A DNA stretch of 64,000 bases from a virus: IMG/VR virus record IMGVR_UViG_3300026290_000011, positions 90 to 64,089 of that record. The stretch is one strand, 5' to 3'. Position numbers and translations under genes: made by a program. The notes beneath the pieces are model-generated. The model searched no databases, was not told where the DNA came from, and was given only the letters and a program-made list of their open reading frames with translations. Positions 7,131-60,550 of this stretch are shown one piece after another (positions within the stretch are counted from its first letter, which is position 1; each line of letters begins with the position of its first letter).

Positions 7131-7272
7131 TAGTGAACCAAAATTTTCCGGCATAAGAATAACAGATTATGAATTAAAGTAAACAAAAATGAATTTGGGT
7201 ACTTGCATTTAAGTAAAAAAAAATACATTTTACAGTTGTTAATTGATGACCCTTGTTAAAGGGTGAGACCAA

Positions 7273-7327: not shown

Positions 7328-7354
7328 GTTTTTAAACAAAAGTTGGAGTAAAAG

Positions 7355-7654: not shown

Positions 7655-7665
7655 TCGGAGAAAAA

Positions 7666-9054: not shown

Positions 9055-9082
9055 GGCAGTCTTAAAAGACTAATTAACTAAA

Positions 9083-9150
9083 AATTGTAATCTGATAAAA
9101 AGGAGCAATTATTACCCATAAGAGACGGGTGTAATTGCTTTTTCGTTTTT
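9083..9150 (+). promoter_or_regulatory. Conserved leader hairpin plus overlapping intrinsic terminator, copy 2
   Basis: AATTG-TAA-TCT-GATAAAAA-GGA-G-CAATT, then AGCAATTATTACCC/GGGTGTAATTGCT-TTTT. Confidence 0.75.
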
Positions 9151-9165
9151 AAAGGAGTAGAGAAA

Positions 9166-10455
9166 ATGGGATTAATAAATGATGATTTGAGAATGTACCG
9201 TGATGCGTTGTCGCAAGAACTTAAACTTTCTCAGTGGTATCCAGACTCAAAATGGGCTTCTATGATAGGTCATATTGGCGGGACTGATGCAAACGGTTAT
9301 CCAAAGTCTGTTAGTTATGGTAGCGTACAGGCAAAAACAATTAAAGGTACGGGTAAACCTATTGAAATGTTGACATCCTTAGACTTTCCTGGCGGATGGG
9401 CTATTGATGTTCCGGTAAAATTACCTTTGAGACAAAAACCGATTTACGGTGATAAACAAGCCAAAGATAACGAAGAGGATATGAATTGGGTTTACATGCG
9501 TGGTTTAATAAACCAAGTAAGATACCCGGTTAAAACCTCTGATGGTCTTATGGGTGATCAAGCATTAACTCCAAAGAGATTAATGCAAATATGGAAAAAT
9601 GTTAAGTCTGAGATTCAATCGGTTAACCAAAGATGGCAAGGGTATGCTCCTTACGATGCTATATATCGTGGATTCTCTGATAACTTATTCGACGACCCGA
9701 TAAACATAACACAAAAGTCGCATCCTAATTGCTATGTAGCAGGTTATGGTAGAGTACCATTCAATTCCGATAATGATACTTATGAAACAGCTATTGTAGC
9801 TCAATTGAATAATCTTGGTGCAGAAGACGGTCTGACAGTGCAAGCAATTAGAAACCTTACATATTTTGGTTCACATCACATGATTGTTCCAACGGTAGCA
9901 GGCAACAAACCAGTAAGAGGTATTTTATTTGTTAATGATGCCCAGATGGTTCAATTAGCTTCAGACCCATTGTTCGAAAAAATGGCAATAGCACTTATTA
10001 CAGCAGATGGTGAAAAATCACCATTCTTTAGCGGTTTCTACGAAGCATACTTAATTGAAGGTGTCTTGATTCTTGCCGATACAAATAATCCAGGTGTATT
10101 GATTAGCGGTGATTCCGGTTATGATTCTTCAAGAGGAATTATCAACTATGGTAATGTTAATCCTTTAGAGAATCCGATTCATGCAAGTGATATTAAAATA
10201 GCTGCTTATGTAGGTGCATCCGCAATACTTGGCGCACACACAGTACCGTTACAGTTTAAGAACAGAACAGATGACTATGATAACATTAGAGGCGAAGCCG
10301 GACGTACTGTAATCGGTTACACAAGAGCCGACAGATATGATCACGATAATTTCCTCGCAGCAAGTGAATTTCTTGGTAATACAAGTTCTCAAATACTCTT
10401 TACCAAGACACCGAATTCACCAACATGGTCTTCTGGATCAGGCAGCGAAGTTTAA
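9166..10455 (+). CDS. Major capsid protein (DUF4043/N4-gp56-like)
   Basis: 429 aa after scaffold. PIYGDKQAKDNEE...INQVRYPV matches the G..xEGNEE...IDQxR pattern of this family. Confidence 0.75.
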   Translation: MGLINDDLRMYRDALSQELKLSQWYPDSKWASMIGHIGGTDANGYPKSVSYGSVQAKTIKGTGKPIEMLTSLDFPGGWAIDVPVKLPLRQKPIYGDKQAKDNEEDMNWVYMRGLINQVRYPVKTSDGLMGDQALTPKRLMQIWKNVKSEIQSVNQRWQGYAPYDAIYRGFSDNLFDDPINITQKSHPNCYVAGYGRVPFNSDNDTYETAIVAQLNNLGAEDGLTVQAIRNLTYFGSHHMIVPTVAGNKPVRGILFVNDAQMVQLASDPLFEKMAIALITADGEKSPFFSGFYEAYLIEGVLILADTNNPGVLISGDSGYDSSRGIINYGNVNPLENPIHASDIKIAAYVGASAILGAHTVPLQFKNRTDDYDNIRGEAGRTVIGYTRADRYDHDNFLAASEFLGNTSSQILFTKTPNSPTWSSGSGSEV

Positions 10456-10519
10456 TTAATGATTAATAAACATGCCCCTTAAGTGGGGCAAAGATAAAAA
10501 ATATTAAAGGAGTATAAAG

Positions 10520-10855
10520 ATGTCAACTAAAACAGGAAAAAGAGCAAATTGGTCAGGGCTTTATGTATCTGATAGACCTCGTGATTTGTTAGGATTGACC
10601 GAAGCGCAAGAAGAAACGATAGATCAGTTTATTGGTTTCGTTGGTAAAAATCAAGACGGTGAAGTTAAAAATGCAAATCTATTAATTTTTACTGGTACAA
10701 GCGCACCAACAATAACTGATTATGCCAATACGCCGAAGGGTACGATTATTATAGCACCATTCTTAACACATTCGCTAATCTATGTGCATAAATCTCAATC
10801 TACACCCGCAGTGGTTGGTGATTGGGAAGTGTTCACAGCCGCAACGGTAACTTAA
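10520..10855 (+). CDS. Putative capsid decoration/minor head protein
   Basis: Follows MCP; AGGAG RBS; Thr/Ala-rich. Confidence 0.4.
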   Translation: MSTKTGKRANWSGLYVSDRPRDLLGLTEAQEETIDQFIGFVGKNQDGEVKNANLLIFTGTSAPTITDYANTPKGTIIIAPFLTHSLIYVHKSQSTPAVVGDWEVFTAATVT

Positions 10856-42567: not shown

Positions 42568-43398
42568 TCATTTTTTATCTAATAATTGCACTAAATCTTC
42601 AATCGACCATAGTTTTTTTGTTAATCCCGCATCCATTGCAGGCGTAACCCTTAAAGATTTATGGATTCTTACAAAGTTATAATACATGAAATGAAGTGCT
42701 ATTGCATGAGCGTGGTTTTCTATCTTCTTAGAAAATCCATTTGTTAGGCGTGTAAATCTTCTCATACTCATTCGCATTGTTAAATTTTGACGTTCAACAA
42801 AACTTGTTGAAATATGTTTTGTCTTAGGTATGCCTGTAACAACATTTACTTTTGTTCCTGTGCATTCTGCCGGACTGTATCTGTGTCCCCTGTCTAAAGA
42901 TTCTCCATATAGTTTTACAAGTTGAGCATAATCTATGTCTGCTCCAAATGTTGTTTCAACAGCTTCTAAGTATGCTTTCAATCCGTCTGTGGTTAATTGT
43001 ACCCGATCACTTAATCTTGATGCTACGTCTTCCATAAATATTTTTGCATATTCTGCATCACGATTTCCAACAAGCCAAGATACTGCAAGTTTAGAATCAG
43101 AGTCTAAAGCAACCCAAGTCCAAACACTTCCAAGCCCAAACTTGCCCTGCATATCTTCGGGAAGATTTTTTTCTTTGGCATAAACGAAAGACCAAATTTC
43201 ATCACATTGAATTCTTTTTGCTTTAACATTTTTTACATTTTCATCGTGGTATTTTTGACAAGCCGTTCCAATATCAACTAATAATTTTGTTACTGTGTTT
43301 ATCGAAACATCTGCAAGTCTTGAAGTTGCTCTTAAACTATTTCCTTCAACAAGTAATCCAACAATCTGAATTCTTTTTTCTGTTGATAGCTTATTCAT
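42568..43398 (-). CDS. IS1-family DDE transposase (single ORF)
   Basis: N-terminal HTH (GNSLRATSRLADVSINTV), CDEIWSFV, LTTDGLKAY, VERQNLTMRM..RRFTR; stop codon lies inside the TIR. Confidence 0.92.
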   Translation of the reverse strand: MNKLSTEKRIQIVGLLVEGNSLRATSRLADVSINTVTKLLVDIGTACQKYHDENVKNVKAKRIQCDEIWSFVYAKEKNLPEDMQGKFGLGSVWTWVALDSDSKLAVSWLVGNRDAEYAKIFMEDVASRLSDRVQLTTDGLKAYLEAVETTFGADIDYAQLVKLYGESLDRGHRYSPAECTGTKVNVVTGIPKTKHISTSFVERQNLTMRMSMRRFTRLTNGFSKKIENHAHAIALHFMYYNFVRIHKSLRVTPAMDAGLTKKLWSIEDLVQLLDKK

Positions 43399-43458: not shown

Positions 43459-43509
43459 AAGTTCAGTTTGCAATTATTTGTATTTATCATTACGTTTGCA
43501 TCAAAATAG

Positions 43510-43577
43510 TGGAGCTGGAGGGAATCGAACCCTCATTTGTCGGGTGGGAATCCAGACTTTTTACCATAAACAGCCCC
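43510..43577 (-). tRNA. Degenerate tRNA-like RNA: Ala-type acceptor (G3.U70, A73), shortened D-arm, UCC anticodon
   Basis: GGGGCTG/CAGCTCC stem; T-arm GAGGG-TTCGATT-CCCTC; anticodon stem has one mismatch, loop ATTCCCA; no encoded CCA. Confidence 0.55.
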
Positions 43578-43581
43578 ATAG

Positions 43582-43673
43582 CGGTGAGTGTTGGATTTGA
43601 ACCAACGGAACTGAGTGCGAGTCAGTTCGCCGGATTTACAGTCCGGTCGTTTAAACCACTCACGCAACTCACC
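43582..43673 (-). tRNA. Type II tRNA with GUA (Tyr) anticodon and Ser-like body
   Basis: GGTGAGT/ACTCACC acceptor, CCGGA-CTGTAAA-TCCGG, 7-bp variable stem, GTTGG-TTCAAAT-CCAAC, discriminator G. Confidence 0.85.
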
Positions 43674-46689: not shown

Positions 46690-47271
46690 ATGCTAACTTT
46701 TAACGAGTCAAAACACGAATACAAATACAACGGTTTAATCATCCCCTCAGTTACGCAAATTCTAAGAGGTAGCGGATTAGTTAATCTTGATTGGATTCCG
46801 AAAGAACTATTAGAAGAAAAGGCGGACTTAGGTACTAAAATACATAAGACAACAGAATTATATGACCAGGACACACTTGATTATGAAAAACTACACTCCT
46901 TATTAAAAAATTATCTTAATGGTTGGATAAAGTTTAGAGAAACATTTCAGTTTGAACCTTTAGAGATAGAACCAGAGTATTATCATAAGATTTATAGATA
47001 TGCAGGTAGAATAGATAGAGTAGGCATCGTTAAAAAAGAGATAACTATTGTTGATATAAAAAGCGGGACACATCAAAAAACGCACGAAATACAAACTGCA
47101 GGCTATCAACTTCTTTATAATTCTAATAAACCTAAAAAAGAACAATCTACAAAAAGATTATTAGTATATCTGAAAGAAAATGATTTTAAGGTAGAAGAAA
47201 ATAAAAACAAAACAGATGAGTCGGTATTCCTTTCGGCTCTCACAATTTACAACTATAAAAGAGGTCTATAA
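46690..47271 (+). CDS. PD-(D/E)XK exonuclease
   Basis: PSVTQIL, YAGRIDR, IVDIKSG, QTAGY. Confidence 0.85.
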   Translation: MLTFNESKHEYKYNGLIIPSVTQILRGSGLVNLDWIPKELLEEKADLGTKIHKTTELYDQDTLDYEKLHSLLKNYLNGWIKFRETFQFEPLEIEPEYYHKIYRYAGRIDRVGIVKKEITIVDIKSGTHQKTHEIQTAGYQLLYNSNKPKKEQSTKRLLVYLKENDFKVEENKNKTDESVFLSALTIYNYKRGL

Positions 47272-47963
47272 TGAAAAATTTGATTGAAGTACAACCCATT
47301 GACGTGGAGGAAGTACAGTCTGAGACAAAAGATGTATCTCTACTTTACCAAAAGAGTAAAGAACTAAAAATTAATAGTCAAGAAAGTTATGAAGTTGCTG
47401 CCGATGCTCTTAAACAAATAAAAAATCGTTTCAAAGAAATTGACACACAAAGAAAAAAAATAACATCACCGCTTGATGCTGCAAAAAAAGAAGCTATGGA
47501 ATTATTCAAAAAACCACTTGACCAGTTAAGCGAAGCTGAATCCATCTTAAAGCGTAGCATGATTAACTATACTACTGAGCAAGAAAGAATAGCAAGAGAA
47601 GAAACGGAACGGCTTAAAAGGTTAGCAGAAAAACAAGCTGAAGAAGAACGTAAAAAACTTGAAGCGAGAATAGAAAGAGCCGAATCAAACGGTAAAATTG
47701 AAAAAGCTGAAGAACTTAAAGAGAAGAAAGAAAGCATTATCCCTATTAACGTTCCTATCGTTGCCCCTTCTATAGCAAAACCGAGCGGGGTTTCATATAG
47801 AGACAAATGGACGGCGAAGGTTGTTGATTTTTCTAAACTAACTGATGAATATAAATTACCGAATCAATCAATGTTAGATAAGATGGCTCAGGCATCAAAG
47901 GGAAATGCACAAATACCCGGCGTTGAGTTCATTTGTGAAAAAATATTATCAAGCAGGAGTTAA
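47271..47963 (+). CDS. Coiled-coil recombination-module protein
   Basis: Long coiled coil between exonuclease and ERF; C-terminal IPGVEF. Confidence 0.55.
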   Translation: MKNLIEVQPIDVEEVQSETKDVSLLYQKSKELKINSQESYEVAADALKQIKNRFKEIDTQRKKITSPLDAAKKEAMELFKKPLDQLSEAESILKRSMINYTTEQERIAREETERLKRLAEKQAEEERKKLEARIERAESNGKIEKAEELKEKKESIIPINVPIVAPSIAKPSGVSYRDKWTAKVVDFSKLTDEYKLPNQSMLDKMAQASKGNAQIPGVEFICEKILSSRS

Positions 47964-47965
47964 AA

Positions 47966-48706
47966 ATGGAAAATAATTTAGTAGTACAAGATGAAATGAA
48001 AGAGTTACAAAGTTATTCACCACAGGGATTAATTAGCCAAGCACTTGCTCAAAATTTACCCATTGAAACATTGGAAAGATTGATGGATTTAGCTGATAGA
48101 TGGGAAACTAAACAAGCTAAAACGGCTTTCCTAAGAGCATTAACGGAGTTTCAAAGTATTGTACCTGTATTAAAAAAGAAAAAAAGAGTTTCTTTCAATA
48201 CTACAAAATACAACTACACACCTTTAGCCGATATAGTAGCTGGTATTAAAGAAGCGGAAGAAAAAACCGGATTATCACATAGATGGGAAATAGAAGAAAA
48301 AGACGATAGTATTATTTGTACTTGTATTATATCCCATATAGCCGGACATTCTGAAAAAACATCATTATCAGCAAAGAGGGATTCATCAGGTAACAAAAAT
48401 GAAATACAAAGCAGAGGAAGTGCAGTAACGTATTTACAACGATATACGTTAATCGGTGCATTGGGTATTTCAACAGCAGACGAAGATAACGACGGATCGA
48501 CATCAGGGTCAGAAAAACAGAAAGAGGAAATTCCCGACCCAAAAGAAAAAGTGAATTGGAGTAAACTCATTAAGAATTGTGATTCTAAAGAAGAACTTAA
48601 CTCCGTTTGGAATAGGATGTCTGATTCTGAGAAAAAAGAACACAAAGCAACATTCACAAAAATTAAAACAAATATTGAATCCGCTAATAAAAAGGAAGGC
48701 AACTAA
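47966..48706 (+). CDS. erf: ERF-family single-strand annealing protein
   Basis: YNYTPLADI and GSAVTYLQRYTLIGALGI..ADEDNDG. Confidence 0.88.
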   Translation: MENNLVVQDEMKELQSYSPQGLISQALAQNLPIETLERLMDLADRWETKQAKTAFLRALTEFQSIVPVLKKKKRVSFNTTKYNYTPLADIVAGIKEAEEKTGLSHRWEIEEKDDSIICTCIISHIAGHSEKTSLSAKRDSSGNKNEIQSRGSAVTYLQRYTLIGALGISTADEDNDGSTSGSEKQKEEIPDPKEKVNWSKLIKNCDSKEELNSVWNRMSDSEKKEHKATFTKIKTNIESANKKEGN

Positions 48707-49125
48707 TGGCATTTTCATTAAACAAAGTAATGTTAATCGGTTCACTCGGCAAAGATGCCGAAACAAGATTCACCACAGACAATAAGTCTGTAACAAACTT
48801 CTCAATAGCAACAGAAAATAGTTATAAGGGGAAAGACGATAACTGGATAAAAGAAACAACTTGGCACAATATAGTTTCTTGGAATCTTTCAGACTTCTTC
48901 AAAGATGCCTTAAGGAAAGGTGCTAAGTTTTATGTTGAAGGTAGAATAAGTAAAAGAGACTACACAGACAAAGAAGGTATTAAGAAATACATCGTTGAGG
49001 TGGTTTCTGAAAAACTAATTCCCTTGAATAATGACCGACAGGTTCAAAACAATGAGGAAACTTATACTCCTAATGTAGATAACAATAAACCAGTAGAAGA
49101 AGACGGAGACGGACTCCCGTTTTGA
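48706..49125 (+). CDS. ssb: Single-stranded DNA-binding protein
   Basis: LNKVMLIGSLGKDAE, TTWHNIV, acidic tail DGDGLPF. Confidence 0.95.
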   Translation: MAFSLNKVMLIGSLGKDAETRFTTDNKSVTNFSIATENSYKGKDDNWIKETTWHNIVSWNLSDFFKDALRKGAKFYVEGRISKRDYTDKEGIKKYIVEVVSEKLIPLNNDRQVQNNEETYTPNVDNNKPVEEDGDGLPF

Positions 49126-49126
49126 T

Positions 49127-49537
49127 ATGAAGTTACTTGTTACAAATACCGAAAAAGGATTATTGCCAAAGTATGATTCAGACTTTGAAGAAAAAAAACG
49201 TTTGAAGATAGGTGAAGATTTTTGGTGTGATATTAAAAGAGCAAGGAATTATGAGTTTCATAAAAAATTCTTTGCTCTTATGAAAATAGGATGTGAAAAT
49301 TCTAAGAACGTAACAATGCCCTTAGATGCTTATAGGAAATATGCAACCATTAAAGCCGGATATTTTAAGACTTACAAAACGCCGAAGGGTTTATTTGTGG
49401 AAGCTGATTCAATATCGTTTGATAATATGAGCCAAGATGAATTTGAAAAACTTTATTCAGCTGTTTTAGATTTTATAATTCAAGATACTGAAGCTACAAA
49501 AGAAGATATAGAAAGCAATTTAATTAGTTTCTTTTAA
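49127..49537 (+). CDS. DUF1367/NinB-like protein
   Basis: RNYEFHKKFFAL...SISFDNMSQDEFEKLY. Confidence 0.7.
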   Translation: MKLLVTNTEKGLLPKYDSDFEEKKRLKIGEDFWCDIKRARNYEFHKKFFALMKIGCENSKNVTMPLDAYRKYATIKAGYFKTYKTPKGLFVEADSISFDNMSQDEFEKLYSAVLDFIIQDTEATKEDIESNLISFF

Positions 49538-49614
49538 ATAATTAGCACTTCATTGTGCCTCCTTCATCCGGTGAAATCGAAAGAGAGTAACCGGAGATTA
49601 AAAACGGAGTTAGT

Positions 49615-49881
49615 ATGCAAGAAATAATAGAGTATAAAGACGTTTTAAGTTTGGGCTTCCAGAGGGAAGATTTACAAGACAGTATATTCTTTAACAAGTT
49701 TGGATTCAACTATTATTTAATGACGTTAAAGTTATATAAGGGTATAAGTGCAGAGTGGGATATTAACGAAAGAACCGTAAAGATAATAAGATGCAACAAA
49801 GAAGGTGATATACTTGGACAGATATACGTGAAAGATTTAGCTGAACTTGAAATTTATATAAACTTTTTCAAAAACAAATAG
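49615..49881 (+). CDS. Hypothetical protein
   Basis: GGAG RBS. Confidence 0.55.
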   Translation: MQEIIEYKDVLSLGFQREDLQDSIFFNKFGFNYYLMTLKLYKGISAEWDINERTVKIIRCNKEGDILGQIYVKDLAELEIYINFFKNK

Positions 49882-49896
49882 AGGAGTAGGTCTAAA

Positions 49897-50805
49897 ATGT
49901 TTGTAAAATATCAGCACATAGAAAAATATGGAACAGACGAGACCCAAAATATAGAAATAGGAACGTGCTATATTTTCCCAAAAATAGATGGGACAAATGG
50001 AAGTGTATGGATAGAAAATAATATTATTAAAGCGGGTAGTAGAAGAAGAGAATTGAGTTTAGATGACGACAATGCGGGTTTTTATGAGTGGATATTAAAG
50101 CAAGAGAGCTTAAAACGCTTTTTGGAAGCATACCCTCATTTAAGACTATTTGGAGAATGGTTAGTTCCTCATAGTCTAAAAACTTATAGAGATGATGCCT
50201 GGGGAAAGTTTTATGTTTTTGATGTATGCCAAACAAGAGATGGCGATGAAGATGAACTATTAAAGTATCTAAGATACGAAGATTACAAACCTTTGTTAGA
50301 CCAGTTTGGTATTGAATATATACCCCCTATAAGGATTATTAAAAATGGTAGTTATGAAGATTTTATAAAACTTTTAGAAAGCAATAACTATTTAGTAAAA
50401 GATGGATTTGGTAGCGGAGAGGGTGTTGTAATTAAAAACTATAGTTATGAAAACAAATATAAACGACAAACGTGGGCAAAAATAGTAACAAGCGAATTCA
50501 AAGAAAAACATCACAAAGAAATGGGTGCGCCTATTGTGAATGGCAAACAGCTAATCGAAGATGAAATAGTAAAAGATTTTTGCACAGATGCTTTAATAAA
50601 AAAAACGTTTGGGAAAATTAAAGCTGAGAACGATGGATGGAATAGTAGATATATACCGCAACTTTTAGGGCGTGTTTGGCATGATTTAATTAAAGAAGAA
50701 ACTTGGACTTTCATTAAGAAATTTAAAAACCCGATTATAAATTTCAAAACATTACAATACAAGGTAACTTTAAAGATAAAAGAAACATTACCCGAAATTT
50801 TTTAA
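49897..50805 (+). CDS. RNA ligase (Rnl2-like nucleotidyltransferase)
   Basis: Motif I PKIDGTN, FGEW, FYVFD, EGVVIK, AKIV. Confidence 0.8.
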   Translation: MFVKYQHIEKYGTDETQNIEIGTCYIFPKIDGTNGSVWIENNIIKAGSRRRELSLDDDNAGFYEWILKQESLKRFLEAYPHLRLFGEWLVPHSLKTYRDDAWGKFYVFDVCQTRDGDEDELLKYLRYEDYKPLLDQFGIEYIPPIRIIKNGSYEDFIKLLESNNYLVKDGFGSGEGVVIKNYSYENKYKRQTWAKIVTSEFKEKHHKEMGAPIVNGKQLIEDEIVKDFCTDALIKKTFGKIKAENDGWNSRYIPQLLGRVWHDLIKEETWTFIKKFKNPIINFKTLQYKVTLKIKETLPEIF

Positions 50806-50916
50806 CAACAAAAGAGAGGAGTAAATTAATGCGTACCCTGTCCTATCAAAAAACAAACAACAATAGAATAGCCCTCAATCAAATACAGCAGGGTACGCTG
50901 ATTATTCACTAAGACT

Positions 50917-51183
50917 ATGAAAGAGATTAATTGTAAAATAATAATACTTGAGTGGATGAAAGAGAAAAATCCAATTACTTGTTTTCATCATAACATCGAA
51001 AAAGAAGTGCAGGAATACGGACTGGAAAAGTTTGGTAAGATGTATAGTTATGCTACTTATCACCGCAATTTTTGTTGGATAAAAAACGATGAAAAACTTT
51101 TAAGAGAAAACGGGATTGAGATTACCCCTTTGATAGAAGGTTCGGGGAAATTAAATAAATGGCGTATCACGTTGATTGTTTGA
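50917..51183 (+). CDS. Hypothetical (possibly winged-helix) protein
   Basis: Last gene before the cassette array. Confidence 0.5.
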   Translation: MKEINCKIIILEWMKEKNPITCFHHNIEKEVQEYGLEKFGKMYSYATYHRNFCWIKNDEKLLRENGIEITPLIEGSGKLNKWRITLIV

Positions 51184-51257
51184 AGGATGATAGCCGTTTT
51201 TCGGTATAACGATGTTGCGGTTAAGTTGCCTCTGGAAATTTTTATAGGGATAAAATA

Positions 51258-51587
51258 ATGAACAACAAAATTTATAAATGTATTCACTGTGGCAGAAACT
51301 TAGGCGATAAAGTGCCACATAGATGCAAAGGAACATTTAGAAAGAGAAAGTTACAATTTCGCAATCGGTTAAGCGGTCAACTTAAACCGCTTGTTATACC
51401 GAAAACGGCGGAAGTAGCCTTCTCGGAAGAATTAAACAAAATAATTGAAGCTGGCAATAAATTAGCCGAAGCAGCACATAAAGTTCAATCTGATTATGAC
51501 GGCATACATAGATTAAGATTAGCACTGTCAGAGTGGTATAAAGTGAGAGCTAATGAGTTTGACCGTGATAGCCGTTTTTCGGTATAA
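51258..51587 (+). CDS. Cassette 1 gene, CxxC zinc-finger hypothetical protein
   Basis: Starts in the attC loop, crosses GTT (51393) as Val, stops at the core TAA. Confidence 0.7.
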   Translation: MNNKIYKCIHCGRNLGDKVPHRCKGTFRKRKLQFRNRLSGQLKPLVIPKTAEVAFSEELNKIIEAGNKLAEAAHKVQSDYDGIHRLRLALSEWYKVRANEFDRDSRFSV

Positions 51588-51709
51588 CGGAATGGAAACT
51601 AAAGCGCAAAAAACTTATGAATGAATTAAATAAATATTTATAAACTAAATTATGCCAACAATCCTTAACTAACCAGCGATATTTTTTGTCGCTTTGAGTT
51701 TTTATTTAG

Positions 51710-51979
51710 TTGGATTTGAGGCGGGAGAAACTTATGAATTTTAAAAAAGGTGATAAGATAGAATGGACTTATGAACATTCTTTGAATCGAAAATCTAAAA
51801 CTCATATAACTAAAACCGGCATTTTTATTAGGGTACTTGATATGAGAAAATTAAGCAGAGCGAGAAGGATTCCGCAATATAATAGCGAAATATCATCTTA
51901 TGCAATAGTACATTTTGATGGGAATAAAAACCCGTCTAAAGTTTTAATTAATGAATTGCGAGCCGCAAATTCCAACTAA
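51710..51979 (+). CDS. Cassette 2 gene, SH3/KOW-like hypothetical protein (likely start 51734)
   Basis: FKKGDKIEW...TGIFIRV; GGGAG RBS before ATG 51734; stop is the core TAA. Confidence 0.65.
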   Translation: MDLRREKLMNFKKGDKIEWTYEHSLNRKSKTHITKTGIFIRVLDMRKLSRARRIPQYNSEISSYAIVHFDGNKNPSKVLINELRAANSN

Positions 51980-52033
51980 CGCTGCGGTTTTTAAGCCGTT
52001 GCGGAAATATTAACAATTTAATTTGAGGATAAA

Positions 52034-52393
52034 ATGAACACAGAAGAAAAGAAATTGCACAAAGAAATTGTTGAAGAATTAAAAAATAAAGGATGGACTA
52101 ACCCAGCAATAAATGAAAGTTTTGCACAGGAATTAATTTTAGATGTTTACAAGATAGCAAGCAATCGGCTTGAAAAAATTGTTAGCCAGAAAACGGCGGG
52201 CGGATGGAGAGACGCAAAGAAAGACCCGCCAGAGTTATCAACATCAATGAAAATAAATGCAGTATTAGTTATACACAGAAATTATATAAAATTTGGATGG
52301 AAAACAGAGATTGGGTGGCATATAGAAAATTCGCCAAGTTATTGGGACGAAGAAATTAAATATTGGATGCCATTACCAGAATTGCCAGAATGA
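52034..52393 (+). CDS. Cassette 3 gene, DUF551-like protein
   Basis: WRDAKKDPP...YWMPLPELP; crosses GTT 52181 as Val. Confidence 0.65.
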   Translation: MNTEEKKLHKEIVEELKNKGWTNPAINESFAQELILDVYKIASNRLEKIVSQKTAGGWRDAKKDPPELSTSMKINAVLVIHRNYIKFGWKTEIGWHIENSPSYWDEEIKYWMPLPELPE

Positions 52394-52566
52394 TAGCCGT
52401 TTTTCTGGCTAACAGATTTGCAACTAACAAGATTGCGGAAGCAAAGAATGAACTTAGATTTTTTAATTAACATAAAATTATTAACAAACAAAAATAGCCA
52501 AACCGTAATAGCAATTCTTTGTTGATTGCCTTGTTATACGGATTTTGGCGGACATAGGAGTATCTA

Positions 52567-52845
52567 ATGGAATTTACAAAAGAAGAAATATTGCAGTGCA
52601 TTAGCGGAGAATTGCTTGCCGAATGTATAGCAGATAAAATATTACAGAACAAAAAAAATCATTTTGAGGAATTTGATAAAGCCCTAATCGAGGGTATGAG
52701 AAAAGCTGCACGGATGGTAGTTGACGAACTGATTAAAGAATATGATTTTGAGAAGGAAATACAGACAAGAGTCAAAAACACTTTAACCAGTATGACGAAA
52801 GCGGAAGTATTAAGGCTTATAGCGAAAGAGGAAGTTATTTTTTAA
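52567..52845 (+). CDS. Cassette 4 gene, hypothetical protein
   Basis: AGGAG RBS just downstream of GTT 52533. Confidence 0.65.
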   Translation: MEFTKEEILQCISGELLAECIADKILQNKKNHFEEFDKALIEGMRKAARMVVDELIKEYDFEKEIQTRVKNTLTSMTKAEVLRLIAKEEVIF

Positions 52846-52930
52846 GGAATGCGAGCCAAAATTCCGTATAACGGATCGAGCATAAGCAGTTGCGGTAACA
52901 AATAAAAAAACTAAACAATAGGAGTTACAA

Positions 52931-53266
52931 ATGGAAACAGTAGTAAAAATTAAATGGGACGAACCGAGCGATAAAAATTGGTTGTGTCCAGACAACATCA
53001 AAACGGCTTTAAGTGCTTATTGCACAAATACAAAATTTGAGGTAAGCGAGGTTGATAGCAATCTGCTTGATGCGCAAGTTAGCCAAGCCGTTTCTCAGGC
53101 GATGCCGGAGCCGAACTCTCAAGTTTGCGCTAATTGTAAGTGGCTGGCTGATAGAGATGGAGAGAACAACTATTTCTGTAATTGTTATGAATCAGAAACT
53201 TGTGATATACTAATCATTTTGAAAGATACATTCGGGTGCAACAAATTTGAGCGCAAACTTTTGTGA
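52931..53266 (+). CDS. Cassette 5 gene, Cys-rich hypothetical protein
   Basis: AGGAG RBS in the loop; CANC...C.C...C; crosses GTT 53078 as Val. Confidence 0.65.
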   Translation: METVVKIKWDEPSDKNWLCPDNIKTALSAYCTNTKFEVSEVDSNLLDAQVSQAVSQAMPEPNSQVCANCKWLADRDGENNYFCNCYESETCDILIILKDTFGCNKFERKLL

Positions 53267-53429
53267 GGCGAAGGACTGGCTAACATTGTTGCAATTTACC
53301 CGATTGCGTGCATTGACAAATTGTTTTTATTAAAAGTTTAATGCCTTAAACAAGGCAAATTATAAACGACCGTATCTGATAGCAATTCGGAGTAGAATTG
53401 CGAGTTAGGCGGTAAAATTTGGACGTATT

Positions 53430-53642
53430 ATGAAAAAGAAAAAATTGAGTTGCTATTTTTATTTTGTAGGATGGGACTGTCTAAGTTTCGGAATTCATTT
53501 CTGTTGGAGACTGCCCAATATCGAAATACATATTCCCTTCGGATTTATAAGAATAGGTATAGAGAATCATTACGGGAAATGTATAAACGATGATTTCTGT
53601 AATAAAAGAACTTTTGGGTGGACGAAAATTTTATCCGCCTAA
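53430..53642 (+). CDS. Cassette 6 gene, hypothetical protein
   Basis: Starts after GTT 53404; stop is the core TAA. Confidence 0.55.
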   Translation: MKKKKLSCYFYFVGWDCLSFGIHFCWRLPNIEIHIPFGFIRIGIENHYGKCINDDFCNKRTFGWTKILSA

Positions 53643-53669
53643 CGAGTGGAAACTTACCCGATTGCGTAA

Positions 53670-54476
53670 ATGAAAAAGGAAAACATTTTGAAAGAAGAAA
53701 CTAACATAACAGCACAAACTAAACAGCCCGAAGATAAAAGCAATTCGGGTAGAGTTTTTAGTTATGTGCCGTTTTATGATTTAGATAATATTACATTGTT
53801 TAATAATGATTACCGAAATGTAATTGATAGCCTTGCGCCCGCAGATTTGATTATTGCCGATCCTCCTTATGGGGAAAAACAAGCAAGTTGGGATGAGGAG
53901 AAACCAGATGAAGAAGTTTGGCGGACATTCTATGATAAATTAAAAGACGGTGGTGTTTTATATTATTGGGGTTTTTGGGGGCACGCTGAATGGATATTGA
54001 GAAATGCAAGGCGAGCGGGTTTTACTGAACAGAGTAGAATCGTTTGGTGGTTTGCAACAGGAAGACCAGAGAAAAAAAGTTATAGGGAAGATACAGAAGA
54101 TTGTTATTACTTTTCTAAGGGTGAACCAAATTACTTCAATCCGAATAATTATTACGAACCTTATGACAAAGTTTCTAATTACGAACGATATAATAAAAAC
54201 GGCAAACATCCAGGAACGATATGGCGAGCGAGTCGGATAATGTGGAATCATCCCGAAAATGTCGGGCACGAAACCCAAAAACCCCTTACGCTTTATAAAA
54301 AAATAATTGATATATCTTGTCCGCCAAACGGCATTGTTTACGATTTCTTTTGTGGAAGCGGAACGACTTTATTAGCAGCTAAACAGTTGGGGCGCAAGGC
54401 GGTCGGAATAGAAAAAGAAGAAAAATATTGCAATATAATAACGAAGAGACTAAGCCAAATGGAAATGCAACTTTGA
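53670..54476 (+). CDS. Cassette 7 gene, beta-class N6A/N4C DNA methyltransferase
   Basis: ADPPY precedes HETQKP and DFFCGSGTT. Confidence 0.9.
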   Translation: MKKENILKEETNITAQTKQPEDKSNSGRVFSYVPFYDLDNITLFNNDYRNVIDSLAPADLIIADPPYGEKQASWDEEKPDEEVWRTFYDKLKDGGVLYYWGFWGHAEWILRNARRAGFTEQSRIVWWFATGRPEKKSYREDTEDCYYFSKGEPNYFNPNNYYEPYDKVSNYERYNKNGKHPGTIWRASRIMWNHPENVGHETQKPLTLYKKIIDISCPPNGIVYDFFCGSGTTLLAAKQLGRKAVGIEKEEKYCNIITKRLSQMEMQL

Positions 54477-54573
54477 AAAAATGAGGCACATAACGGAGTT
54501 GCGGCTAAGCGGTGCCGGAAAGGTAAGCACAAAACAGATTTGAATAACATAACCATAAACAAGGAGTAGTAAC

Positions 54574-54765
54574 ATGATTAATATAAGTGATTTAAACGAA
54601 CTCTATTCTGCCGTGCAAATGCTTGAAAGCATGACACAATTAGTAGAAAGTCTTAATAGTAAGACCAATAATAATATTTATGAAGAAACTAAATACGCGA
54701 GGATAGCAATTAAGCGAGCAAAAGAAGCGTATGAGAAAATTAAGACCTCTACCTATGTTAGTTAA
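54574..54765 (+). CDS. Hypothetical protein lying wholly inside the cassette 8 attC loop
   Basis: AAGGAG RBS; lies between the L arms at 54500-54515 and 54774-54791. Confidence 0.55.
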   Translation: MINISDLNELYSAVQMLESMTQLVESLNSKTNNNIYEETKYARIAIKRAKEAYEKIKTSTYVS

Positions 54766-55348
54766 AAATGATAGGCATCCGCTTGAGCCGCTTGTTATGC
54801 CGTTTGGGCACGACAAGAAATACGATATAATATTGGCAGACCCACCTTGGAATATACGCTGGGGAGGAAGTAACAGCATAGGGTTGAAACCTTTACAATA
54901 CCCCACAATGCTAATAACGGAACTTTGCCAATTGCCCGTTAAACAAATTGCAAATGATTGTAGCAAACTATTTTTGTGGACAACCAACGGCTTCTTGCCC
55001 GAAGCGTTGGGGATATTAAAATTTTGGGGTTTCCAATATGATAAACTTTGGACATGGTGCAAACCAACTGGAGCCGGAGGACACCCCAGAAATGCAACAG
55101 AACATTTAATTGAAGCAAGTAGAGGCGCAGTAAAGAGTATAGGCAGACATGAAAAAGCAGTAAACAATTGGTTTGAAGCCCCAACGCAAGGGCATAGCAC
55201 AAAACCAGAAAAGGCAAGAAGATTGATAGAATATTGTTACCCTAATACAACTAAGATTGAATTATTTGCAAGGCGTAAAGCCGTTGGTTGGGATGTGTGG
55301 GGGAACGAACTTGAAAATAGTATAGAGTTAGTGCCCAAATCGGCATAA
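54731..55348 (+). CDS. Cassette 8 gene, MT-A70-family adenine methyltransferase
   Basis: ILADPPW, LFLWTT, HSTKP, IELFAR; true start may be nearer 54797. Confidence 0.88.
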   Translation: MRKLRPLPMLVKNDRHPLEPLVMPFGHDKKYDIILADPPWNIRWGGSNSIGLKPLQYPTMLITELCQLPVKQIANDCSKLFLWTTNGFLPEALGILKFWGFQYDKLWTWCKPTGAGGHPRNATEHLIEASRGAVKSIGRHEKAVNNWFEAPTQGHSTKPEKARRLIEYCYPNTTKIELFARRKAVGWDVWGNELENSIELVPKSA

Positions 55349-55394
55349 CATATTGCGGTTAACCTTGCGAGCGGACTAAAACAGAAATGAAATT

Positions 55395-56048
55395 ATGAAA
55401 GAAAAAACAGGACAAAATAAAAATACTGAATTGACTGAGCGAATAGCGAAGTCAAGCGTTGAACCGCCAGTTATGCAGTTTGGGCACTGTAAGAAGTATA
55501 ATATTATTTACGCTGACCCACCGTGGTATAGAGGGCAAAGGATGTATAGCAGCAATAAGAACGACCACCACGTTGAAGCAGATAGACATTACCCGATTAT
55601 GAAAAAGAAAGCACTTTGCGATTTACCCATAAAACAAATTGCGGCGGATGATAGTGTATTATTTATGTGGGTTACTGACAGCAACTTAGACGAAGCAATG
55701 GGAGTCATTAAAGCGTGGGGGTTTAAGTATAAAACAGTTGCATTTATTTGGCTAAAGAAAGAAAAAAGCGGGAAGCAAGTTTGCTTTATGGGTTGTTGGA
55801 CTATGAAAAATGCGGAAATAGTTTTGTTGGCAACAAGGGGGAGAATGACTAAACACTTAAAAAGTCGCAAAGTGCGCCAATTACAAGAGGCAATAAGAGA
55901 GCGTAAGATACACAGCAGGAAACCACAAATAATTAGGGATAGGATAGTGGAAATGTTTGGGGATGAGCTACCTAAAATAGAATTATTTGCAAGGGAAAGG
56001 ATAGAAGGTTGGGATGCGTGGGGAAATGAAGTGCCCAAATCTGCATAA
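55395..56048 (+). CDS. Cassette 9 gene, MT-A70-family adenine methyltransferase
   Basis: IYADPPW, LFMWVT, HSRKP, IELFAR. Confidence 0.9.
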   Translation: MKEKTGQNKNTELTERIAKSSVEPPVMQFGHCKKYNIIYADPPWYRGQRMYSSNKNDHHVEADRHYPIMKKKALCDLPIKQIAADDSVLFMWVTDSNLDEAMGVIKAWGFKYKTVAFIWLKKEKSGKQVCFMGCWTMKNAEIVLLATRGRMTKHLKSRKVRQLQEAIRERKIHSRKPQIIRDRIVEMFGDELPKIELFARERIEGWDAWGNEVPKSA

Positions 56049-56075
56049 CGGTCAAAACTAAAGCGCAAAAACGGA

Positions 56076-56387
56076 TTGAATAAATTAAATGAATTACAAA
56101 CTAAAATAAGCCAAAAACCAACAACCCCAAGCGATGCTTTTGTCGCTTTGAGTTTGTTGTTGGTTTGCAAAAGGGCGGGAGTAAAAGATATGAAAATTAA
56201 AGAAGGTGGATCAACACAAAATATTAGGGGTAAGAAAATTGAGGAAATAAAAATTAATTGGACACAAAGTGAAAGTTATATATTTGAAATGTGGGTAAAT
56301 GATAGTTTGTCATACTTGACAATTAATGAATTGTTAGAATTAAAAACCGAAATACAAAAGGCATTAGATAAAGCGGTTAAATCTTAG
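56076..56387 (+). CDS. Cassette 10 gene, hypothetical protein
   Basis: Crosses GTT 56159; an internal ATG with RBS gives a shorter alternative. Confidence 0.5.
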   Translation: MNKLNELQTKISQKPTTPSDAFVALSLLLVCKRAGVKDMKIKEGGSTQNIRGKKIEEIKINWTQSESYIFEMWVNDSLSYLTINELLELKTEIQKALDKAVKS

Positions 56388-56456
56388 CCCTTTTGTCAAA
56401 CTAACGGAGTTGGCGATAATGCGCTATCACAAAATTAAAACAAAAGGAATGATGCA

Positions 56457-56819
56457 ATGGAAAACCAAAACAGAATTTACAAACTACTACTCGGAGTCGC
56501 ATTGATTGCCGAGTTAGTGGGATTTGCGCTCGTCCATTTCGATAACACAAAAAAACAAGAAAGAATTGAGCGACTTGAAAAGATTATTAACAACACACAT
56601 TTAGATACGCTGATTACAAAAACAGAAAGTATAAATATTGATGGTTGGTGGAGAAATTATTCTTCTTGGGAAGAACCTCTTAATCTTTTAGAAATGAATG
56701 ATAAACTTGATAAACTTATAAAAGCTACTGGTTATGAATATACGAGAGAAGTGCGATACAAGACTACACATTACGAAGATAGTAAACTTGAAAAAATAAA
56801 GAGCGCAAATTCCAACTAA
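56457..56819 (+). CDS. Cassette 11 gene, membrane-anchored hypothetical protein
   Basis: TM segment LLLGVALIAELVGFALV is encoded by the L arm and core; stop is the core TAA. Confidence 0.6.
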   Translation: MENQNRIYKLLLGVALIAELVGFALVHFDNTKKQERIERLEKIINNTHLDTLITKTESINIDGWWRNYSSWEEPLNLLEMNDKLDKLIKATGYEYTREVRYKTTHYEDSKLEKIKSANSN

Positions 56820-56862
56820 CGGTGTGGTTTTTTACCCGCACGGCTAAACAGAAAAAAATATT

Positions 56863-57501
56863 ATGGATGAAAATTTGGAACTAAAAGAGAACAAAATTAA
56901 CAGCACAAATTTAAGTGTCGGAGTAGAAAAACTTGTTAGCCCGATTGGGCACAACAAGAAATATAATGTTATTTATGCCGATCCGCCGTGGAGTTATAGT
57001 GACCAAGGATGCCAAGGAACGATGGCGAACCATTACCCCGGAATGAGCATGGACGAAATGAAGCAATTGCCGATAAAAGAAATTGCAGACAAAGATTGCA
57101 TTTTATTTATGTGGACTACTTACCCAATGTTGAAAGAAAGTTTAGAGCTGATAGACGCATGGGGATTCACATACAAAACAATCGCATTTAACTGGATTAA
57201 GAAAAACAAGAGCGATGCTGGGTTCTTCTTCGGGCTTGGAAGATGGACGAGGGGTAATGGTGAGCCGTGCCTTTTGGCGACAAAGGGGAAACCCAAAAGA
57301 GTAGCAAATAATATAAGCCAATTAATATTTGCCCCATTGACGAGACATAGTGAAAAACCCCCAGAGGTTAGGGATAAAATAGTTGAGCTTTGCGGGGACA
57401 TACCGAGAATAGAATTGTTTGCGCGCCAAAAGGCAAGTGGTTGGGATAGATGGGGTAATGAACTTGATAATAGTATAAACCTTGTGCCCAATTCGGGCTA
57501 A
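56863..57501 (+). CDS. Cassette 12 gene, MT-A70-family adenine methyltransferase
   Basis: IYADPPW, LFMWTT, HSEKP, IELFAR. Confidence 0.9.
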   Translation: MDENLELKENKINSTNLSVGVEKLVSPIGHNKKYNVIYADPPWSYSDQGCQGTMANHYPGMSMDEMKQLPIKEIADKDCILFMWTTYPMLKESLELIDAWGFTYKTIAFNWIKKNKSDAGFFFGLGRWTRGNGEPCLLATKGKPKRVANNISQLIFAPLTRHSEKPPEVRDKIVELCGDIPRIELFARQKASGWDRWGNELDNSINLVPNSG

Positions 57502-57549
57502 CGATGTTGCGGTTAAGTTGCCTCTGGAAATTTTTATAGGGATAAAATA

Positions 57550-57879
57550 ATGAACAACAAAATTTATAAATGTATTCACTGTGGCAGAAACTTAGGCGAT
57601 AAAGTGCCACATAGATGCAAAGGAACATTTAGAAAGAGAAAGTTACAATTTCGCAATCGGTTAAGCGGTCAACTTAAACCGCTTGTTATACCGAAAACGG
57701 CGGAAGTAGCCTTCTCGGAAGAATTAAACAAAATAATTGAAGCTGGCAATAAATTAGCCGAAGCAGCACATAAAGTTCAATCTGATTATGACGGCATACA
57801 TAGATTAAGATTAGCACTGTCAGAGTGGTATAAAGTGAGAGCTAATGAGTTTGACCGTGATAGCCGTTTTTCGGTATAA
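57550..57879 (+). CDS. Cassette 13 gene (duplicate of cassette 1)
   Basis: Identical translation. Confidence 0.7.
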   Translation: MNNKIYKCIHCGRNLGDKVPHRCKGTFRKRKLQFRNRLSGQLKPLVIPKTAEVAFSEELNKIIEAGNKLAEAAHKVQSDYDGIHRLRLALSEWYKVRANEFDRDSRFSV

Positions 57880-58001
57880 CGGAATGGAAACTAAAGCGCA
57901 AAAAACTTATGAATGAATTAAATAAATATTTATAAACTAAATTATGCCAACAATCCTTAACTAACCAGCGATATTTTTTGTCGCTTTGAGTTTTTATTTA
58001 G

Positions 58002-58271
58002 TTGGATTTGAGGCGGGAGAAACTTATGAATTTTAAAAAAGGTGATAAGATAGAATGGACTTATGAACATTCTTTGAATCGAAAATCTAAAACTCATATA
58101 ACTAAAACCGGCATTTTTATTAGGGTACTTGATATGAGAAAATTAAGCAGAGCGAGAAGGATTCCGCAATATAATAGCGAAATATCATCTTATGCAATAG
58201 TACATTTTGATGGGAATAAAAACCCGTCTAAAGTTTTAATTAATGAATTGCGAGCCGCAAATTCCAACTAA
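58002..58271 (+). CDS. Cassette 14 gene (duplicate of cassette 2)
   Basis: Identical translation. Confidence 0.65.
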   Translation: MDLRREKLMNFKKGDKIEWTYEHSLNRKSKTHITKTGIFIRVLDMRKLSRARRIPQYNSEISSYAIVHFDGNKNPSKVLINELRAANSN

Positions 58272-58329
58272 CGCTGCGGTTTTTAAGCCGTTGCGGAATA
58301 TTTATAAATTTAATTTGGAGTAGAAAACC

Positions 58330-58743
58330 TTGAAAGAAATAATTGATTTGATTGACAAATATTGGAAATTTGACGAAGACCAACAACCATTGTCAAGCTG
58401 GCACGATAAACAAGAATTATTGCAGATCATTAGCAATCGGCTTGAAAAACTTGTTAGCCAGAAAACGGCGGACACAGAAGAAATACTGAGCGCGGTTAAA
58501 GACACTATTTCTGATGGACAATTAATGAGTATGGAAGAATCTACAGAGAAGGAATTACAAAAACATTATGATAAAACTTTAACGGTACCCTTAATTGTAG
58601 GGTTAATAAATAATATTGAGCAATACTATCCAGCCGATGTTTTTGTAAGCGGTGCGGGGGCGATGGCGAGACACGTTTTGAAACTATTCAAACAAGAGTT
58701 AATACTTGCTTGCAAGATAGAGGATAGCCGTTTTTCTGGCTAA
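58330..58743 (+). CDS. Cassette 15 gene, hypothetical protein
   Basis: Shares SNRLEK-VSQKTA arm peptide with cassette 3; stop is the core TAA. Confidence 0.6.
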   Translation: MKEIIDLIDKYWKFDEDQQPLSSWHDKQELLQIISNRLEKLVSQKTADTEEILSAVKDTISDGQLMSMEESTEKELQKHYDKTLTVPLIVGLINNIEQYYPADVFVSGAGAMARHVLKLFKQELILACKIEDSRFSG

Positions 58744-58818
58744 CGATGTGGCAAATAGCCCGAAACGGCTTTGTAAAACAAAATTAATTAACAAATAATT
58801 TAGCTATGAGGCACACCG

Positions 58819-59067
58819 ATGGAAGGTGAACAAGATTTTAGAAATAGATTTATAAACGAAGCATTAGAGATTTGTGAAAGTCATAAACCTTTAATGACAG
58901 ATTGGGAAAGAAACTTTGTAATTGATATTGCAAGATTGCATAGAAAGAGTGGGAAAGGATTGACGCAAAAACAATACAACCAATTACAACTTATTGCTGC
59001 AAATGTTAAAAGACAAATTAATGAGGTGTGCCGGAATGAATATCCTTACCCAACCTATGAAAGATAG
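58819..59067 (+). CDS. Hypothetical protein inside the cassette 16 attC loop
   Basis: GAGG RBS; MTDWERNFV...LTQKQ phage motif; ends just before the 3' L arm. Confidence 0.6.
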   Translation: MEGEQDFRNRFINEALEICESHKPLMTDWERNFVIDIARLHRKSGKGLTQKQYNQLQLIAANVKRQINEVCRNEYPYPTYER

Positions 59068-59842
59068 TTTTCGGGCTGATTTGCTTGTTGGGCTGCCGAC
59101 AATAAACGTAAACGAAATTACTCTTGGCGATAGTTTAGAGCTGTGTGAGCGAATACCCGCCAAAACCGTTGACTTGATACTTGAGGACATGCCTTACAAT
59201 ACAACTGCTTGCGGCTGGGATAAAAAGATTGATTTAGAACTTTACTGGAAAACAAGATTAAGAATATTAAAGCCAACGGGCGTAGTAGTTTTGACAGCGA
59301 GCCAGCCGTTTACCGCTGAGTTGTTAATGAGTAACAAAACAATGTTCAAATATGAATGGATTTGGAAACGCGATAGAGTAACGGGATTTTTGAATGCTAA
59401 AATTATGCCGATGAAAGAACACGAATCAATTTTAGTGTTCGCAGAAAAAATACAAAAATATTATCCAATAAAATGGCTTGGCAGGAAAGCGCATAAGAAA
59501 GGAAAAATTGTTGGGAAAAAGGTAAACGGCGGAACTTATGGAAATTTTACTGCGGTTGATAGCATAAATGACTGGAAATACCCGACAAGTATTTTAGAAT
59601 TTGATAGACCTCATCCACCGATACACCCAACGCAAAAGCCCGTTGGCTTATTCGAATATTTGATTAGAACTTATACTGATGAGAACGATTTAGTATTTGA
59701 CGGTTTTGGCGGAAGTGGGACAACCGCTATTGCTTGCCATAGAAGCAAACGAAATTTTATCGTGATTGAGAAAGGATATACATATTATGACTTAGCAACA
59801 AAGCGGTTGGACAATGAGCGAACACAACTTAGTTTATTGTAA
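58994..59842 (+). CDS. Cassette 16 gene, beta-class DNA methyltransferase
   Basis: LEDMPY, HPTQKP, DGFGGSGTT; start probably nearer 59058. Confidence 0.88.
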   Translation: MLQMLKDKLMRCAGMNILTQPMKDSFRADLLVGLPTINVNEITLGDSLELCERIPAKTVDLILEDMPYNTTACGWDKKIDLELYWKTRLRILKPTGVVVLTASQPFTAELLMSNKTMFKYEWIWKRDRVTGFLNAKIMPMKEHESILVFAEKIQKYYPIKWLGRKAHKKGKIVGKKVNGGTYGNFTAVDSINDWKYPTSILEFDRPHPPIHPTQKPVGLFEYLIRTYTDENDLVFDGFGGSGTTAIACHRSKRNFIVIEKGYTYYDLATKRLDNERTQLSLL

Positions 59843-59903
59843 CGAGGTCAGCCCAACTATGTAATGACCAGACTAATTTGCAACGAAACGTTTATAAGGT
59901 ATT

Positions 59904-60118: not shown

Positions 60119-60550
60119 ATGTATGTAGAGAAAAAATTTAAGTACTATAAAAAACAGAACAAGTATAAAAATAAAATAATTGTAAACAACGGTCAAAAAT
60201 ACGATTCTATTCTTGAGAGCAAGGTTGGGCAAGACTTAGAAATTCTCAAAAAGGCGGGTGAGATAAAAGATTATGAGAGGCAAGTAAAAGTTGAGTTCAA
60301 CTTTATTTTTCAAGAAAATGGTGAAATTATATTTACTACCGAACCACGATTAGAATTAAAGAACTCTAATAAAGAAGTAATGCACTTGTTCAATTATTTT
60401 GTTGACTTTAAGGTATACCATAACGATGATATGATCGAGTTTATAGAAGTAAAGGGGATGTGGATAGAACCAGGTTTAACAAAGTTTAAGTTACTTGAAA
60501 TTTATCTTAAGAATAAACCAGAATATAAATTAACAGTAATGAAAAAATAG
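60119..60550 (+). CDS. DUF1064-like endonuclease
   Basis: YDSILE...YFVDF...IEVKG. Confidence 0.7.
   Translation: MYVEKKFKYYKKQNKYKNKIIVNNGQKYDSILESKVGQDLEILKKAGEIKDYERQVKVEFNFIFQENGEIIFTTEPRLELKNSNKEVMHLFNYFVDFKVYHNDDMIEFIEVKGMWIEPGLTKFKLLEIYLKNKPEYKLTVMKK

Follow-up and report, generated by a model that had tools for sequence, protein, structure and literature searches.

The early region of the phage genome held in IMG/VR virus record IMGVR_UViG_3300026290_000011 (64,270 nt, completeness rating 100%), of which a stretch of 64,000 nt, here called the window, was analyzed, raises the question of why one structured site should recur before gene after gene, and which recombination system such sites might serve. 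The element occupies positions 51210–59857 of the window on the plus strand and consists of 16 tandem units that follow a single shared grammar, as had been proposed in a sequence-only reading of the window; of the span given in that reading (51210–59856), the start stands and the end does not, since the last core ends at 59857. Taken as a whole, the array is probably best explained as an integrase-less cluster of integron-type attC sites with their cassettes (CALIN), situated within the early part of a complete phage genome and served in trans.

Each unit reads, in order, the C of an AAC core, a spacer of 4–6 nt, an inner stem with its loop, a GTT core, the gene body, and the AA of the next core. 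The AAC cores (n = 17) end at 51210, 51588, 51980, 52413, 52872, 53284, 53643, 54494, 55349, 56049, 56405, 56820, 57502, 57880, 58272, 58744 and 59857, the last of these being the right end of the array. The GTT cores (n = 16) start at 51393, 51705, 52181, 52533, 53078, 53404, 53761, 54794, 55470, 56159, 56513, 56935, 57685, 57997, 58453 and 59087, all on the plus strand; 14 of them are GTT, and those at 51705 and 57997 are TTT. In almost every unit the two cores pair with each other as GTTA/TAAC. In this way, 16 sites are packed within 8.6 kb. At the left boundary, an R arm ending in TAAC (51193–51210, plus strand) lies 3' of an 88-aa open reading frame (ORF; 50917–51183); this arm has no upstream partner and has the same sequence as the closing arm of unit 1.

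The inner stem comprises 12 bp, and its 3' arm carries two bulged bases, found on the plus strand only. The first of them, exactly 8 nt before the GTT core, is a G in 13 of the 14 distinct sites and an A in units 1 and 13; the second, 7 nt further in, is a T in 12 of the 16 units, and the stem goes on beyond it. Among the 14 distinct sites, 152 of the 168 cells of the inner stem are Watson-Crick pairs, three to five pair types are represented at most positions, and the stem halves form 11.2 pairs with their own partners versus 7.1 when mixed. An outer bracket joins the two ends of each unit: the 17 nt that follow the GTT core are paired to the 18 nt that precede the next AAC core, giving 9 bp, one bulged base (mostly T) and 8 bp. 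This bracket is perfect (17/17 pairs) in 10 of the 16 units, with a mean of 15.6/17 pairs with the unit's own far end versus 9.9/17 with the adjacent arm. Exceptions are units 4, 6 and 12, in which the inner stem is degenerate, and the last unit, whose bracket is only 9 bp. The distance from the AAC to the GTT core is 107–120 nt in nine units, 180–205 nt in five, and 299 and 342 nt in the remaining two.

Some units have their arms in coding sequence and others have them 3' of the stop codon, and homologues elsewhere of the MT-A70 proteins encoded in the array align to residues of about 31–200 only, the arm-encoding ends being absent from them. The arms are therefore a feature of the DNA and not a protein motif. 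The sequence-only reading had named as one refutation the case that the arms are conserved coding motifs without compensatory changes, and this case did not hold, given the several pair types per position. The same reading had placed the bulged base exactly 8 nt before the GTT core and had taken the opposite spacer to be longer than the classical one; both points are borne out, the 5' side being 3 nt longer. Its count of units in which the TAA of the TAAC core is the stop codon (10/16) was also obtained here.

A simple site detector gave 13 true and two false matches on the plus strand and none on the minus strand; in 2.86 Mb of other viral DNA its background was about one match for every 90 kb of each strand. 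No Rfam family matched the array, and scans for promoters and terminators found no enrichment within it. An element of the type of the miniature inverted-repeat transposable elements was rejected, since it is the gene, and not the junction, that the pairing arms span. A shufflon, or a set of invertible segments, was likewise rejected, as the inverted arms are specific to their cassette and identical cassettes travel as units.

The geometry of these sites is in many respects that of integron attC sites. Both have R boxes (an AAC end and a GTT start), extrahelical bases in the 3' arm on one strand only, a G lying 8 nt before the GTT, and a crossover point, predicted in the window, between the AA and the C; and, as in integron cassettes, the first core of a unit complements the last core of that same unit and not the neighbouring core. 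In position, the bulges agree with those that integron integrases read, according to the geometry given in PMC2727003. On the other hand, the window sites are for the most part base-paired between the R and L boxes (6 bp; 6 versus 2 unpaired bases), the extra 3 nt lying on the 5' side, and their R stem is longer, with 9 + 8 bp around a bulged T, whereas published sites reach 9–11 consecutive pairs. Unlike a complete integron, the window has neither an integrase nor an attI site. A CALIN is defined by at least two serial attC sites and no integrase nearby; here there are 16 sites in an integrase-free genome.

In order to find the same grammar in bacteria, the GTDB genome collection was searched with a pattern drawn from the commonest window stem. 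Matching arrays were found in short contigs of Bacteroidia, Saprospiraceae, Ignavibacteria, Calditrichota and Anaerolineales and of two alphaproteobacterial genomes, with a cargo typical of integrons (TIR, reverse transcriptase, beta-lactamase, and IS110 and IS21 insertions). A Fibrobacteres contig (L243) carries such a site 385 nt upstream of a gene for a 432-aa protein that scores 452 bits against TIGR02249 (cut-off 265) and has the integron-specific insertion. Both the site and this integrase are on the plus strand of the contig, and the genes are on the minus strand. From this integrase-adjacent layout it follows that the strand bearing the AAC...(G)-8 nt-GTT grammar corresponds to the canonical bottom, recombinogenic strand, in agreement with Bouvier et al. 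2009 (PMC2727003).

A covariance model (R1) was then built from eight bacterial array sites, none of them selected by the pattern derived from the phage, and is tuned to a site length of about 125 nt. Such a custom model had been suggested in the sequence-only reading as a check, and it recognized 14 of the 16 window sites at full length, all on the plus strand, with E values from 2e-8 to 0.02. It had no matches in 460 kb of other viral loci, and it also matched sites in the arrays of other phage contigs as well as the integrase-adjacent site in L243. The proposal that the system is distinct from canonical integrons was not sustained: a model of bacterial sites recognizes most of the window sites, the G-8 nt-GTT geometry is canonical, and a recombinase of the phage's own was not found.

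What does set the window apart is the polarity of its genes. Classical cassettes have the gene on the top strand and the attC site downstream of it, whereas in the window the genes are on the bottom strand and each site stands before its gene: all 16 genes are on the plus strand together with the site grammar. In the bacterial contigs, cassette genes were on the strand opposite the grammar in eight cases and on the same strand in one, an insertion sequence (IS). The earlier claim that the attC-like sites are inverted relative to the genes was thus upheld against both the bacterial arrays and the integrase-adjacent site. Genes on the same strand as the grammar were also found in four further viral contigs: G001 (70.5 kb, complete, at least six units), G009 (51.7 kb, complete, eight sites), G010 (nine sites) and L205. 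By a crude open-frame measure, phage polarity was the same in 13 cases and opposite in one, and the unclear cases in the window were settled by Pfam matches and stop codons. Mirrored polarity seems to be the usual condition in phage arrays.

Weak sites of the same grammar, with a bulged T, were observed on the minus strand of Polaribacter phage P12002L (L278; 30011–30053, 32800–32922, 39833–40047 and 40764–40946), on the same strand as its methyltransferase genes; this published CALIN phage may have the mirrored layout in common with the window. A decayed cassette was observed in G001 (L208, 9169–9444, minus strand): it encodes a Dam-like methyltransferase cut to 91 aa, its site and arm are homologous to those of window cassette 7, and its closing arm no longer matches.

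The polarity bears directly on the alternative that the stems act in the mRNA, either by translational coupling, in which a ribosome terminating at the TAA of TAAC would open a hairpin enclosing the next start codon, or by nuclease processing, the cassette-like appearance being secondary. Sites in the window are transcribed in sense, 11 of the 16 units have an ORF start within the site loop, and the core TAA serves as a stop codon at the frequency given above. Yet the same sites are antisense to the genes in bacteria, and the outer stem spans whole genes of 200–850 nt, which fits a circular cassette and not a local RNA switch. As the bulges also lie where integron integrases read them, and identity to other metagenomes breaks at the cores (see below), we regard this alternative as very improbable, although a role in RNA could be an added function of the sites.

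Evidence for movement of the cassettes came from other metagenomes. Sequence words of the array were present in 15 public runs from 12 studies; the probable source run alone has all of them, and the other 14 runs (11 other studies) hold 5–10% each, which corresponds to one or two cassettes. Whole cassettes recurred there at 99–100% identity. Cassette 7 (53640–54496) is present without a mismatch (100% identity over 857 nt) in L217, a wastewater contig of 905 nt, where the R arm before it and the site after it are both different; the junctions fall within TAAC, the sole sequence shared there. Cassette 10 (56049–56407) was recovered, with two differences, from within a fuel-cell contig of 2.5 kb that belongs to another study and in which the flanks are unrelated. 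Further identity breaks at cores were found at 56406, 56816 and 59855, and in a compost run identity begins at the TAAC of cassette 12. The sequence-only reading had predicted mobile units with junctions between AA and C and had named unit-level gain or loss as its test; cassettes 7 and 10, amid unrelated flanks, are such cases. By comparison across samples, the array is a demonstrably mobile set of cassettes. It should be mentioned that no near-identical phages were found in GenBank, and that 105 loci reached via the flanking RNA ligase and replication genes, and 80 reached via MT-A70 homologues, contain no such sites according to the detector or the model.

A contig of 1143 nt from another sample (L360), when compared to window positions 51110–52034 and 57492–58544, joins unit 0 and cassettes 1–2 straight to cassette 15. 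It is either an array variant that has lost cassettes 3–14, and with them about 6.3 kb, or the result of an assembly path that crossed an 800-nt repeat. This repeat (51207–52006 = 57499–58298) starts at TAAC and makes cassettes 13–14 an exact duplicate of cassettes 1–2.

The duplication and the L360 joint are the expected products of homologous exchange, and it has to be considered that the arms could be short homology linkers at which the phage's Erf protein, SSB and exonuclease shuffle genes by relaxed homologous recombination, with no site-specific recombinase involved. Such relaxed shuffling has reportedly been proposed for the promoter-stem-loop (PeSL) cassettes of T4-type phages. These cassettes, said to have been described by Arbiol et al. 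in 2010, are reportedly small early genes, each with a repeated structured motif at its borders, that are reshuffled among related phages; conserved sequences (promoter and terminator hairpin) reportedly serve for homologous exchange. In the window, genes for Erf, SSB, NinB and a nuclease are located directly upstream of the array; arm families of 22–40 nt (D2, D5 and D9) recur on unrelated cassettes; cassettes 3 and 15 have all site parts in common and differ in loop and body; and in many contigs from other metagenomes the match is restricted to the arms. However, cassette 7 in L217 shares only TAAC at its junctions, and the same grammar is present in bacterial arrays beside a true integron integrase. 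Moreover, unlike the PeSL cassettes, those of the window vary in sequence and conserve their geometry with compensatory changes, having a core of 4 nt and co-variation of the arms within each cassette. For these reasons homology linkers are a distinctly unlikely explanation of the array as a whole, and homologous exchange probably acts alongside site-specific exchange and not instead of it.

Under the preferred reading, that of a CALIN served in trans, a cassette would begin with the C of one AAC core and close with the AA of the core that follows. In a circular single-stranded cassette the two ends would pair, and this pairing and the inner bulged stem would jointly restore a single attC-like hairpin. 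Cutting between AA and C on the plus strand, and with it the exchange of cassettes, would then be the work of a tyrosine recombinase that acts in trans. The likeliest enzyme would be an integron integrase of the host, and a less likely one a short Xer-like recombinase of a co-resident phage.

Several observations weigh against this reading. No tyrosine, serine or HUH recombinase was found in the three complete array-bearing phages. No circles or excision joints were seen in the assembled contigs to which the comparison extended. The site loops, of 107–342 nt, usually hold a ribosome site and the first 20–60 codons of a gene, and are far longer than the short variable terminal loops of classical attC sites, which are 57–141 nt in total length. 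Finally, some identity breaks are located on the GTT side (56159 and 53400), where bodies with their arms stand behind different loop modules, and these are not explained by cleavage between AA and C alone. Given these breaks and the arm-only matches, loop modules and bodies have also been recombined separately, which could reflect occasional exchange of the top strand or homologous recombination via the conserved arms.

With regard to the enzyme, the window genome contains no PF00589 match, and no intI gene or attI site is found beside the array. Transposition of single strands of the IS200/IS605 type was rejected, as no Y1 transposase is present in the three complete phages, and so was a serine recombinase, on the result already given. 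These phages have almost no early genes in common, which makes a common unrecognized phage enzyme unlikely. In the array-holding bacterial genomes, no recombinase adjoined the arrays on the contigs examined. Close relatives (40–59% identity) of a true integron integrase were found in 51 IMG/VR contigs (L363–L413), which are either phage or mis-called bacterial DNA; in 29 of these contigs, model R1 found just one site.

Five other viral contigs (L338, L306, L320, L296 and L358; positions of about 5000–10800 in each) carry mirrored arrays directly upstream of a same-strand gene for an Xer-like recombinase. These proteins are 277–281 aa long, share 55–77% identity with one another and are without the integron-specific insertion. 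Their arrays resemble that of the window in the mirrored layout, the AAC and GTT cores and the bulge 8 nt before the GTT, and model R1 matches some of their sites. They differ in having shorter loops (about 50–120 nt), the recombinase at the 3' end of the array, and a T or an A as the bulged base. An enzyme of this type, from another phage or lost from the window phage, could be what acts on the window sites. Nevertheless, the window sites have a G at this position nearly throughout, as do the integrase-adjacent bacterial sites, and no remnant of a recombinase gene was found in the window phage, G001, G009 or G010. We therefore consider the Xer-like enzyme rather unlikely, and the G-type sites, matching the integrase-associated bacterial type, favor a host integron integrase acting in trans.

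A further possibility, which we put forward only tentatively and hold to be more doubtful than not, is that phages maintain a pool of mirror-image cassettes of their own, apart from the bacterial pool. Transcription of the early operon, in place of conjugation or replication, would expose the coding (non-template) strand, here the recombinogenic one, for folding, and the sites would double as translation starts. Exchange at both R boxes, between AA and C on one strand and on the GTT side on the other, would recombine bodies and leader or N-terminal modules in frame.

The cargo of the array, all on the plus strand, includes five DNA methyltransferases (three MT-A70 and two N6_N4). Cassette 1 (51210–51587; site 51210–51393) has a 109-aa ORF (51258–51587), whose start lies within the site loop and whose stop codon is the TAA of TAAC. 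Cassette 2 (51588–51979; site 51588–51705, with TTT replacing GTT) has a small ORF that starts 3' of the R' arm and ends at 51979. Cassette 3 (51980–52412; site 51980–52181) encodes 119 aa (52034–52393), and cassette 4 (52413–52871), with its degenerate inner stem and perfect 17-bp bracket, encodes 92 aa (52567–52845). Cassette 5 (52872–53283; site 52872–53078) has a weak bracket (12/17 pairs) and a 111-aa ORF (52931–53266), and cassette 6 (53284–53642; site 53284–53404) a 70-aa ORF (53430–53642). An N6_N4 DNA methyltransferase (53670–54476) is carried by cassette 7 (53643–54493). The 299-nt site loop of cassette 8 (54494–55348) contains a 63-aa ORF (54574–54765), and the cassette also carries an MT-A70 methyltransferase (54731–55348); cassette 9 (55349–56048) and cassette 12 (56820–57501) carry the other two MT-A70 genes (55395–56048 and 56863–57501). 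Between them lie cassette 10 (56049–56404), with a small ORF (56190–56387), and cassette 11 (56405–56819), with a 120-aa ORF (56457–56819). After the copies of cassettes 1 and 2 (cassettes 13 and 14, 57502–58271), cassette 15 (58272–58743) encodes 137 aa (58330–58743). Cassette 16 (58744–59856), whose 342-nt loop contains an 82-aa ORF (58819–59067), carries the second N6_N4 methyltransferase (58994–59842).

The remaining ORFs, all below 140 aa, had no family assignment, and ten of them scanned against PHROGs gave nothing informative. Look-ups of exact proteins gave, for the most part, fragments of the same phage. When the ORF starts within the site loop, the GTT core is an in-frame Val codon in 9 of 11 units. 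Long antisense open frames run through the three MT-A70 cassettes on the minus strand (54640–55200, 186 aa; 55589–56170, 193 aa; 57120–57491, 123 aa); the genome is AT-rich. The combination of methyltransferases and small early proteins suits a reservoir of genes for anti-restriction and other kinds of host takeover, open to reshuffling between phages.

To the left, the array is flanked by the RNA ligase gene (49897–50805), the last gene of a plus-strand module (46690–50805) that encodes a PD-(D/E)XK nuclease, an Erf-type annealing protein, SSB, NinB and the RNA ligase, and that represents the phage's own homologous-recombination module. To the right is a plus-strand gene for a DUF1064 protein (60119–60550; Holliday-junction-resolvase-like PHROG), at the place where integrase-bearing arrays carry the recombinase. 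Right after the RNA ligase stop, itself a TAAC, a perfect 10-bp stem (GCGTACCCTG / CAGGGTACGC) that encloses a loop of about 50 nt was observed at 50806–50900. It has no bulge, nor a GTT at the expected distance, and could represent, at the left edge of the array, either a terminator or a site in decay. Elsewhere in the window, a DDE transposase gene (42568–43398, minus strand; weak IS1/rve matches) adjoins a tRNA and a tRNA-like element (43507–43673, minus strand).

Integrase-less attC clusters in virulent phages, with methyltransferase cassettes and with sites recombined by IntI1, have been known since 2023 (Qi et al. 2023, PMC9892861). The clusters described there comprise 2–4 sites found with standard tools, whereas the window has 16 cassettes, all of them mirrored; gene-to-site polarity and gene starts inside sites were not reported in that study. 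Our literature searches found no description of the mirrored layout, of gene starts inside sites or of Xer-associated arrays. What is new relative to this literature is a mirrored layout in which genes start within the loop of the site.

Integrons are viewed as bacterial platforms for gene capture, and the polarity of their cassettes is held to be essential since cassettes depend on one attI promoter. The window holds a large, clean set of cassettes of opposite polarity in a phage, a polarity also seen in the other phage arrays examined, and it contributes cross-sample evidence for cassette movement. Standard integron finders probably overlook half of the sites of this type, owing to their length limits. 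The array offers concrete sites that bear on the strand choice and the loop-length tolerance of integron integrases. If a separate phage pool of mirror-image cassettes did exist, it would be a device for combinatorial shuffling of proteins and operons, served by host integrases during infection. More generally, to judge from the array, phages may use integron recombination chemistry to pass early genes, anti-restriction methyltransferases among them, from one to another without having an enzyme of their own.

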